The position numbers were made by a program, and so were the translations under genes. This document shows, piece by piece, positions 59,467 to 62,197 of a stretch of 64,000 nucleotides of DNA. Source of the stretch: Shigella phage CT01; sequence record OK018184. One strand, 5' to 3'. The number at the start of each line of letters is the position of its first letter. Position 1 is the stretch's first letter. The notes under the pieces were generated by a model, which was not told where the DNA came from, did no database searches, and saw only the letters and a list, made by a program, of their open reading frames with translations.

Positions 59467-62197
59467 ATGGCTACTTTAAAACAAATACAATTTAAAAGAA
59501 GCAAAACCGCAGGTCAACTTCCTGCTGCTTCAGTATTAGCCGAAGGTGAATTGGCTATTAATTTAAAAGATAAAACAATTTTCACAAAAGATGACTCAGG
59601 CAATGTTATAGAATTAGGTTTAAAATATGGAGGAACAATTGATGGTTCTTTAACTGTTAATGGAAATATAATTGGAAATTTAACAGGTAACGCTGCAACT
59701 GCAACGAAATTAAAAACAGCACGAAAAATTAATGGTATATCCTTTGATGGGTCAAAAGATATCACGCTAACTCCATCCGACATAAATGTCAATAGCACAA
59801 CGTTTATAAAAAATAACGGCGAATTACCTGTTGATGCTAATTTAGATACGTATGGGCCTGTTGAAGAATATCTTGGAGTTTGGTCGAAAGCAACTTCAAC
59901 CAACGCTCAACCAGCAAATAAATTTCCAGAAAACAATGCTGTAGGTGTGCTAGAAGTATTTGTGGCCGGTCAATTTGCTGGTACTCAGAGATATACAACT
60001 AGATACGGAAATGTTTATATTCGTTCCTTGACTGCTACATGGAACGGAGTAAATGGTCCGTGGAGTGTGTGGCGAAATATTCAATCCGGTACTCGTTCAC
60101 TGTCAACAACAATTGATCTTAATGATCTAGGAGGTGCTGAACATCTTGGTTTGTGGCGAAATAGTTCAAATTCCATTGCTACCTTTGACAGAAATTTCCC
60201 AGAAGAGGGGTCGTCAGCTCAAGGTCTTTTGGAAGTATATGAAGGTGGAAACTATTCTCGTACACAAAGATATACAACCAGATTTGGTGTTGTTTATACT
60301 CGCTGTCTTACTGCTGCGTGGGATGCTTCTGCGCCTAAATGGGGACCGTGGCAACAAGTCGGTAATGTCACACCGGCGACTTTCTATGACGGAAACCTGA
60401 ATGATTTTAAAACTCCTGGGTTATATAATATTTTAGGCACTGATGCCGTTATTAATTGTCCTACAGGCGAAGGTTTACCAGCCGTTATTGTTGGTTTGCT
60501 GGAAGTTAAACAGCGTGCTTCTGGCGGTGCTATTTTCCAAAAATTTACTACTGCCGGAACAGGTGCAACTACCCGCGATCGTATTTTTGAGCGCGCATAT
60601 ACCGGCGGTGTGTGGGGTGAATGGAACGAAGTATACACATCTTATTCTCTACCAATTACTTTGGGTATGGGCGGTATTAAATCTAACTTAGCAGAGTTAG
60701 ACTGGCAAGCATTTGATTTTGTTCCTGGTAGTATGTTTAGCGTTCCTTTGAACAAAATAAAGAACATGCCAGCTAATATGGATTGGGGTACGATTGACGG
60801 AAACTTAATTATGTTTTCTGTTGGTCCTAGCGAGCACACCAGCACAGGACGTACTGTTCAGGTTTGGCGTGGAACTGTATCCCAGACAAACTATCGTTAT
60901 TTTGTCGTTCGTGTATTCGGTAATCCAGGGAGTAGAACATGTACAGTTCGACGCGTTGTTCTTGAAGACGGATCACATACTTGGACTGCTAAACAAGATT
61001 TTAATGGCGCAGTTAACTTTAACTCTACTGTTAACCTTAATAACACTACCACATTTAAAACAGAAGTTAAATTCCGCTCGTTGAATGCAAGGCGCTCATT
61101 TTTCCACTGAACGTACTTTAGCGACTGGTGCAATTAAAACTCGTTTCTTTGGCGAAACATTCACTGATGGTACATTATACCTAAATCAGATGAATAATAG
61201 CTCTGAACGATTCCATATCAATAATTGGGGAAATTCAGAAGTTGGTCGCGCGGCAGTGATGGAAGTCGGTGATTCCAAAGGTTATCACTTCTATACGGAA
61301 CGCAGGACAGATAACAGTTTGACATTTGATGTTGCTGGCACTTTTACCGTGCATGGACCTACCGGGATCACTATCAAAAACTCTGTTGGTGCTCGCCACA
61401 TCTGGTTTAAAGATGATAGCGATGCAGAAAAGGCTGTTATCTGGGCTACAGATGAGGGTATTTTACATATTCGCAATAATCATGAGGGTTCATTTAGTCA
61501 TCACTTCCAGGGTGCAATGATTAAACTGGAAGGGCGTGTTCCTTATGGTGCAGCAAAAGGGCTTATTCGAGGCGAGATAGACGGTGGTGCATATGTTGCA
61601 TGGAGAGACCGCCCTGCTGGTTTGTTGGTTGACTGCCAGAAAAGTATTGACAGTGCTCATGCTGTTTGGAAAGCGGTTGATTGGGGGCGTCAATATATCG
61701 CTGCTATGGACGTTCATTGTCCGGGTGATGGTAATAATACTGCGGCAGCGGTTCTTCATGTTCAGGCTGCTGATTATCAATTCCATGCAAGCGGAGAATT
61801 TCATGCCACTGGTAACGGGAACTTTAACGATGTGTATATTCGTTCCGATGGTCGTCTGAAAATTAATGTTGAAGATTATACAGGAAATGCGTTAAGTTTG
61901 ATCGGCAAACTGAAAGTGAAAACTTACGATAAAGTTAAATCTCTTAAAGACCGTGAAATTATCGGTCACGAGATCGGCATTATCGCACAGGATTTACAAG
62001 AAATATTACCGGAAGCTGTAAAATCTTCAAAGGTTGGCAATCTTGATAATCCAGACGATGTTCTGACAATTTCTAACTCTGCTGTGAATGCTCTTTTAAT
62101 TAAGGCTATTCAGGAAATGAGTAAAGAAATTAAAGAATTGAAAACTCCTTTCTTTACTAAAATTGCTCGCAAAATTAGTAAATATTTTAAATTCTAA
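59467..62197 (+). pseudogene. 37: Long tail fibre distal subunit gp37, frameshifted by a 344-bp internal deletion
   Basis: Split into ORFs 59467-61110 and 61085-62197; the missing 344 bp (junction at 61089/61090) is present in the copy inside nrdA; C-terminus has a chaperone-like domain. Confidence 0.85.

Follow-up and report, generated by a model that had tools for sequence, protein, structure and literature searches.

The gene 37 locus and an ectopic gene 37 fragment in nrdA

The 64,000-nucleotide stretch of DNA analysed here (the window) is a segment of a T2/T6-type Tequatrovirus, with the backbone of a wild mosaic rather than of a laboratory strain. Its long tail fibre genes lie on the + strand in the order 34-35-36-37-38-holin at 53.7–63.7 kb, with ORFs at 53710–63015 (Table 1). 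Gene 37 is recognisable as the T2/T6-type gene from where it lies, after genes 34, 35 and 36 and before the gene 38 adhesin, from its near-identity to gene 37 of Shigella phage SF2-1 (98.5–100%) and from its C-terminal Peptidase_S74 domain, but it is not the single continuous ORF of ~1000 codons that characterises this type. It consists instead of two overlapping ORFs of 547 and 370 aa, exactly where an earlier note on this DNA had placed them. The 5' ORF is 98.5% identical to nt 1–1623 of SF2-1 gene 37, while the 3' ORF encodes the Peptidase_S74 chaperone domain (PF13884, E = 8e-14) and opens at an ATG that is out of frame relative to the upstream part.

BLAST comparison of the gene 37 region with the rest of the window returned two matches of 100% identity, window positions 60944–61089 with 43238–43383 (146 bp) and 61088–61436 with 43726–44074 (349 bp), for which, given their exactness and length, a chance origin is impossible. 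The matching region in nrdA is an ectopic copy of 837 bp, of which the native locus covers 493 bp, the remaining 344 bp being gone. The claim of the earlier note that these 344 bp were lost from gene 37 and kept in nrdA is accurate to the base, as is the 2-bp CA microhomology that it described at the breakpoint, by which the two matches overlap. The interval that it gave for the lesion (60944–61436) spans everything at the locus that is homologous to the ectopic copy, whereas the lesion is confined to the single junction 61089/61090. As 344 is not a multiple of 3, the reading frame is broken, and the native translation ...KFRSLNA-FRMYGG...QLEDSQ... becomes ...KFRSLNA-RRSFFH-stop in the window; the frameshift and early stop that had been proposed therefore stand, with the trivial correction that six aberrant codons, rather than seven, precede the stop. 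The frame is lost after codon 541, and the deletion parts the gp36-binding and shaft half of gp37 from the tip half bearing the chaperone domain. As written, gene 37 in the window is a null allele, a pseudogene.

The ectopic fragment and native gene 37 are oriented alike in the genome, and the fragment lies among ribonucleotide reductase (RNR)-family genes, with the nrdA fragments and nrdB as its neighbouring ORFs. Read along the + strand, nrdA continues through 43239 (...CACATCA) and gene 37 sequence begins at 43238/43240, with CA in common, a microhomology short enough to have arisen by chance. The 837-bp fragment is followed by a 24-nt filler, after which nrdA restarts 148 bp behind the point at which it was left. 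The C-terminal nrdA fragment resumes at residue 446, between C437 and C457. The filler (ACAGTTTAATTACCTTCCGCAGTG) occurs only once in the window, and searches of phage and E. coli collections gave nothing that matches it significantly. Expression of the ectopic copy was rejected, as no late-promoter TATAAATA was present on the + strand within 3 kb upstream of it. The flanking nrdA duplication, the 24-nt filler and the further rearrangements described below were not mentioned in the earlier note, and they change the weight of the gene 37 finding.

Insertion by a mobile element was considered for this structure. A transposon or IS insertion was rejected because the flanking duplication is 148 bp and not 2–14 bp, because the insert consists of gene 37 DNA plus 24 nt, and because the whole window is free of inverted repeats of ≥40 nt. 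A diversity-generating retroelement was likewise rejected, the two copies being 100% identical over 146 + 349 bp and differing by a deletion in one of them, with no substitutions at adenines.

Table 1 Features of the fibre locus, the ectopic fragment and the other rearrangements (positions in the window).
Feature	Position	Strand	Remarks
93-bp tandem duplication	29679–29864		Perfect, in frame
621-bp deletion	42180/42181		mobE codon 45 fused out of frame to nrdB codon 12
nrdA C-terminal fragment	42309–43346	-	36 codons of antisense gene 37, then residues 446–754
148-bp direct nrdA duplication, left copy	43092–43239	+	Flanks the insertion
Ectopic gene 37 fragment, 837 bp	43238–44074	+	SF2-1 gp37 codons ~493–771; antisense to nrdA; 100% to SF2-1 and three relatives
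344 bp lost from native gene 37	43384–43727	+	Survives only in the ectopic copy; placement ambiguous by CA
24-nt orphan filler ACAGTTTAATTACCTTCCGCAGTG	44075–44098	+	Between gene 37 fragment and nrdA restart
nrdA N-terminal fragment	44084–45580	-	Residues 1–494, then HCGR*
148-bp direct nrdA duplication, right copy	44099–44246	+	Identical to left copy
538-bp tandem duplication	50453–50990 = 51054–51591		Spans gene 59/32 junction; 63-nt filler between copies
63-nt filler	50991–51053		Between copies of the 538-bp duplication
Gene 37 5' ORF	59467–61110	+	541 native codons, then RRSFFH (6 aberrant) and TGA
Native-locus homology to ectopic copy	60944–61436	+	146 + 349 bp, 2-bp overlap, 100% identity
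Gene 37 3' ORF	61085–62197	+	Native frame, residues 656–1024; start is a fortuitous ATG
Deletion junction	61088–61089	+	CA common to both breakpoints; 344 bp absent between 61089 and 61090
Gene 38 adhesin	62233–63015	+	Intact; Gp38_N and GP38 Pfam domains; marks fibre as T2/T6-type

Loss of coding sequence and other rearrangements private to the window

The window was compared with SF2-1 and four other relatives retrieved through gp38, all five of which contain the 344 bp. In the closest relative, SF2-1 (PQ571308.1, XPO97909.1), gene 37 is continuous (3075 bp, 1024 aa) and nrdA uninterrupted. Three contigs from Logan (L006, L007 and L008) also have a continuous gene 37 of 1024 aa with the 344 bp, which are present as well in a fourth contig (L009), where gene 37 ends at 1007 aa by the contig edge. 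The complete 837 bp occur exactly in four of the five relatives, namely SF2-1 and the three Logan contigs with the same gp38. When an 80-mer across the junction was searched, the best full-coverage phage matches listed all fell into two pieces 424 bp apart, and the deletion was found in none of the other public records among those listed. The exact junction strings had no match in IMG/VR or JGI metagenomes. No record was found by exact-protein look-up of gp34, gp36, the 5' ORF or the nrdA N-terminal fragment, while that of gp38 and gp35 returned only relatives with an intact gene 37.

The missing 344 bp are in-frame coding sequence for residues 542–655 (114 codons + 2 nt) and cover part of a Gp34_trimer-like Pfam domain (residues 519–581), with the deletion beginning inside the domain. 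The presence of a continuous gene 37 with these 344 bp in every relative examined supports the view that the window has lost coding DNA and that the relatives have not acquired an element. An intron, intein or homing-endonuclease insertion was rejected as the nature of the 344 bp, given that the segment is coding and in frame, that 344 is not divisible by 3 and that no Rfam family matched within it. Hairpin-mediated deletion was also rejected, the inverted repeats near the endpoints being weak only.

The earlier note had named a programmed frameshift joining the two ORFs as one outcome that would overturn its reading; the split is not conserved, with all relatives shown having a single ORF. 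That the split gene nevertheless works, whether by a +1 slip giving a gp37 shorter by 114 residues, by assembly of the two halves or because distal half-fibres are unneeded, is in our estimation the least probable of the explanations considered here. A T5 run (61099–61103) lies ahead of the TGA in the 26-nt ORF overlap, and UUUUU would let tRNA-Phe re-pair in the +1 frame just before UGA; gp37 also varies naturally in length, from 982 to 1080 aa among the relatives. However, the T5 site was made by the deletion itself, so that no selection can have shaped a shift site there, and the Shine-Dalgarno-like stimulator closest to it, AAGG at 6 nt upstream, is weak. The split occurs in no relative, the deletion starts within a folded trimer domain, the 3' ORF has no ribosome-binding site and T-even particles without fibres are essentially non-infectious.

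The gene 37 lesion is one of at least five rearrangements, all with zero divergence, that are private to the window sequence according to collinear comparison with SF2-1 and targeted searches. The 621-bp deletion removes mobE together with the nrdB start and the intergenic region upstream of it, and its junction shows AT plus an offset CAACT homology. The 538-bp duplication keeps one complete gene 59 and one complete gene 32, and the 93-bp duplication likewise leaves a complete gene copy. Repeat copies are 100% identical in all of the duplications, and every other gene of the 64 kb is intact relative to SF2-1, with no stray frameshift. Four of the events cluster within 19 kb (42.2–61.1 kb), and all junctions are in direct orientation with short homologies (CA, CA, and AT plus the offset CAACT). 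Two of the events lie at homing-endonuclease loci: the mobE/nrdB deletion ends ~90 nt from the MobE nick site mapped in nrdB (PMC2790892), and the 538-bp duplication spans an empty segG site, and one of its boundaries lies 290 nt inside gene 32, the target gene of SegG (PMC2988022 Table 1).

The 63-nt filler between the copies of the 538-bp duplication resembles E. coli/Shigella mdtD, with a 26-nt exact core and 36/40 identity. Its remaining differences from mdtD include single-base gaps and replace residues that are conserved in all MdtD orthologues, and none of 185,579 species genomes contained an exact match to a 40-mer that includes the 26-nt core. The filler resembles host DNA copied with many errors more than it resembles a diverged gene, and this is how an unpolished stretch of host-derived read would be expected to look. 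Neither filler resembled segG or the sequencing adapters with which it was compared.

Origin of the rearranged sequence

The nrdA insertion is a template-switch product, made either in the cell or in the tube: it combines an 837-bp templated insert, a 148-bp flanking duplication and a CA overlap, and belongs to a cluster of four events within 19 kb, all features of template switching of the MMBIR/FoSTeS type. The coincidence of insertion and deletion also has to be accounted for. An unrelated 837-bp copy that happened to span an independent 344-bp deletion would have a prior of ~0.3% in a ~168-kb genome, which indicates that the ectopic fragment and the deletion are linked by origin or by selection. 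A stray contig or read carrying the wild-type allele would naturally explain an ectopic copy that spans the deletion.

As gp37 is indispensable for the long tail fibres of T-even phages, the gene 37 null should be lethal, and a clonal plaque-forming stock cannot carry the deletion allele. T-even genomes are also highly recombinogenic and long exact repeats are unstable in them, so the exact 146-, 349-, 148- and 538-bp repeats of the window would not be expected to last. The explanation that we favour, with about even confidence and from sequence comparison, is that the record derives from template-switched, chimeric molecules or from a misassembly, and would then not represent a propagating genome. 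The footprint of the insertion is what a polymerase would leave on switching from nrdA to gene 37 as its template and then returning to nrdA 148 bp behind its exit, and the gene 37/nrdA pair together with the three other private rearrangements would be template-switch chimeras fixed in the assembly. They might stem from amplification of the library, from long reads that were chimeric or from misplacement of a contig with the wild-type allele, and the viable phage would have an intact 3075-bp gene 37 and an intact nrdA, as in SF2-1. The sequence as written would thus probably differ from the consensus of a viable stock.

An artefact of this kind is suggested by the lethality of the null, by the instability of such repeats and by the privacy of the junction, the relatives shown containing the 344 bp and the IMG/VR and JGI searches having returned no junction string. 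It is suggested further by the five young private rearrangements with 100% identical repeats in a segment whose other genes are intact, and by the orphan fillers at two junctions, one of them mdtD-like and noisy. Privacy to a single record, zero divergence between copies, orphan junction sequence and untenable biology, by which an artefact would be recognised, are thus all present. The earlier note had added the proviso that the phage would be adsorption-defective unless complemented, heterogeneous or misassembled, and it is to this proviso that the cluster of private, zero-divergence rearrangements, two with orphan filler, leads. Amplification-based long-read sequencing of phages has been reported to yield 48–63% chimeric reads, and splitting such reads before assembly allowed more complete and high-quality genomes to be recovered (PMC13108922).

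Several observations are less easily accommodated by an artefact. The excellent base-level quality and the lack of stray frameshifts argue against a crude long-read assembly, and a noisy assembly from long reads alone was rejected because no other gene in the window is frameshifted. Junctions in direct orientation with short homologies look the same as those of real illegitimate recombination in vivo, and random chimeras would show no preference for homing-endonuclease loci such as mobE/nrdB and the empty segG site. In its simple form, a stray contig also leaves unexplained the place of the fragment between two overlapping nrdA ends.

These observations keep a real but defective molecule as a possible, though less probable, source. 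Template-switching, low-processivity break repair (BIR/MMBIR-like, within the recombination-dependent replication of T4), during mixed infection with endonuclease-bearing relatives, would have given rise to the insertion in nrdA and the duplication that flanks it, as well as to the gene 59/32 duplication and the deletions. The null genome would persist by gp37 supplied in trans from co-infecting genomes, or by gene conversion from the ectopic copy through its 146- and 349-bp arms, and the source sample would be heterogeneous and non-clonal. Since the ectopic copy renders the gene 37 deletion repairable, it could explain why the two occur together. In T4, nrdA, nrdB and mobE are dispensable, which fits the choice of the other disrupted genes, and the 93-bp and 538-bp duplications spare complete gene copies. 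The clustering of four events, the microhomology or near-homology at the junctions and the direct orientation throughout are also in keeping with such repair; insertion of templated sequence beside a flanking duplication is the classical mark of MMBIR/FoSTeS (PMC2621351), and two of the events fall on homing-endonuclease hot spots, the mobE/nrdB deletion near the MobE nick site (PMC2790892) and the 538-bp duplication across the empty segG site and into the SegG target gene 32 (PMC2988022). However, a gene 37 null cannot be the majority in a purified stock, where revertants and wild type would quickly outgrow it, and five independent young events are many for one genome. The mdtD-like filler is only ~80–90% identical to any E. 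coli/Shigella sequence, with changes that look non-biological, and capture of host DNA by a T-even phage would be unexpected.

A much smaller probability attaches to the configuration being both real and maintained, with a dispensable gene harbouring a silent ectopic cassette from which the broken gene 37 is repaired by gene conversion. Fibres would then be made only in the fraction of replicating genomes converted through the 146-bp/349-bp arms, which would amount to a recombinational on/off state or to a self-rescuing 'cheater' genome arising from endonuclease-provoked break repair.

Deliberate engineering or in-silico alteration, for example as a recombination reporter or a simulated rearrangement, appears improbable, if somewhat less so than a maintained cassette. 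A broken gene with a donor that has 146-bp and 349-bp arms does resemble a marker-rescue design, several kinds of structural change occur within one window, and the genome had no match in the collections searched. However, the backbone is that of a wild mosaic Tequatrovirus and not of a laboratory strain, and no vector, selection-marker or recognisable linker sequence is present. The 148-bp duplication and the noisy host-like filler follow no design logic, and the mobE junction, with its near-homology, suggests biochemistry and not design.

Meaning and comparison with known systems

Taken together, the gene 37/nrdA arrangement is no new kind of system, but combines a microhomology deletion with a segmental copy, and the structural integrity of the record is doubtful. 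The arrangement looks like a recently scrambled, non-propagating genome copy or an assembly error rather than new tail-fibre biology. If the configuration were true, a lytic T-even phage genome could persist in spite of a lethal lesion in its tail fibre gene, next to its own repair template, and the window would be a clean natural case of complex template-switch repair at homing-endonuclease sites. Its more probable value is practical: until the junctions are verified, the record is unfit for claims on gp37 variation, host range or nrdA/nrdB content, and a 'pseudogene plus stray fragment' pair in a phage genome should raise suspicion of a chimeric assembly or a mixed stock.

The closest counterparts of the locus are gene 37 of SF2-1 and of the three Logan contigs with continuous genes, which share the 34-35-36-37-38-holin order and the identical 837-bp segment. 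SF2-1 gene 37 is 98.5% identical upstream of the break and 99.6% identical, with no mismatches, downstream of it, and the Logan contigs encode a protein identical to the gp38 adhesin of the window. Unlike these genes, that of the window is split and out of frame and lacks the 344 bp (codons 542–655 + 2 nt). Classical amber and deletion mutants of T4 gene 37 give fibreless or half-fibre particles, which do not adsorb unless gp37 is given in trans. The window has similarly lost the distal half-fibre subunit, and non-adsorbing particles would be predicted, but the T4 mutants are laboratory alleles on suppressor or complementing hosts, whereas the window is a wild-type-like mosaic that carries an ectopic wild-type fragment.

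The interruption of nrdA recalls that of the Aeromonas phage Aeh1, in which nrdA is split by mobE and the halves, with evolved tails and start signals, reassemble (PMC3045599). Relative to the E. coli protein, both interruptions fall between Cys439 and Cys462. In the window, however, the insert is antisense gene 37 DNA and not a homing endonuclease, 49 residues are common to both halves, the C-terminal half is without an evident start signal and the nrdB start is lost too. Judged from its sequence, the nrdA split of the window lacks everything that makes the Aeh1 split functional.

With MMBIR/FoSTeS events (Hastings et al. 2009, PMC2621351) the window shares a distant templated insertion, a flanking duplication, 2-nt microhomology and clustered, mixed duplications and deletions, although the model was framed for cellular chromosomes and two of the window junctions have untemplated or noisy filler. 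Plaque-2-seq chimeras (PMC13108922) offer a parallel in their frequent template-switch reads, and the host-like filler would fit carried-over host DNA, while the high base-level accuracy of the window is unlike them. A promoterless partial copy that could recombine into an expressed locus from elsewhere in the genome is also reminiscent of the silent cassettes of Neisseria, which pass from pilS to pilE. The window has only one copy, and nothing in it points to a regulated switch; because this copy is identical to the wild-type allele it would, unlike pilS/pilE, offer no diversity.

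Sequence divergence and repeats around genes 36 and 37

Comparison with the nearest public genome, Shigella phage SF2-1 (PQ571308.1), revealed 30 substitutions across 59117-61089, all 30 of them located upstream of 60514, and none across 61088-64000, the stretch downstream of the gene 37 deletion. This uneven identity across 59117-64000 is ordinary T-even mosaicism, and the pattern bears no relation to the gene 37 breakpoint. The neighbouring gene 36 carries an imperfect tandem repeat (Table), owing to which gp36 reaches 230 aa, compared with 216–218 aa in relatives. No record with an identical protein was found by exact-protein look-up of gp36, and the repeat looks older than the other rearrangements. 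The 93-bp in-frame duplication falls within a minus-strand ORF that measures 318 aa in CT01 and 279 aa in relatives, and is missing from all ten of the best phage records listed.

Table. Positions of repeats, duplications, deletion and split points in CT01
Feature	Window position	Detail
Perfect tandem duplication, 93 bp (31 codons), in frame	29679-29864	within minus-strand ORF
mobE/nrdB deletion, 621 bp, private to CT01 among the relatives compared	42121-42309	junction 42180-42181
nrdA split points	43240 / 44098	nrdA residues 446 and 494
Tandem duplication, 538 bp, private to CT01 among the relatives compared	50453-51591	filler 50991-51053
Imperfect 42-bp tandem repeat, 88% identity	59064-59147	inside gene 36 (58766-59458)

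The gene 59/32 duplication and its mdtD-like filler

The 538-bp duplicated unit, which covers the 3' end of gene 59, the intergenic region and codons 1–97 of gene 32, lies at the empty segG site, where relatives with identical gp35 have a homing endonuclease. Its two copies are parted by a 63-nt filler that matches E. coli/Shigella mdtD at 36/40 positions, including a 26-nt exact core; the remainder of the filler looks like a noisy copy.

Sequence of the E. coli mdtD type was also observed near the ends of the ‘UNVERIFIED’ Campylobacter phage records A18a and A11a (MG065686.1, 172351-172987; MG065691.1), a hint that the two records include DNA from a host or a contaminant. Separately, two chromosomes labelled Enterobacter hormaechei (CP169086.1 and CP170191.1) contain a stretch of mdtD that agrees with E. 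coli/Shigella at all 58 nt compared; mislabelling or transfer may account for this.

Disruption of both aerobic RNR subunits

The 621-bp deletion joins codons 1–45 of mobE, a homing endonuclease gene, out of frame to codon 12 of nrdB, removing the nrdB start codon and the intergenic region upstream; homology at the junction consists of AT plus an offset CAACT. With nrdA interrupted and nrdB lacking its start, the two subunits of the aerobic RNR are both disabled in the CT01 sequence. The C-terminal nrdA fragment restarts at residue 446, between the active-site loop NLCCEI (435–440) and Cys457. In Aeromonas phage Aeh1, mobE splits nrdA in the same inter-cysteine region, as judged from the positions of the cysteines, and the sharing of this region by the two phages is probably coincidental.
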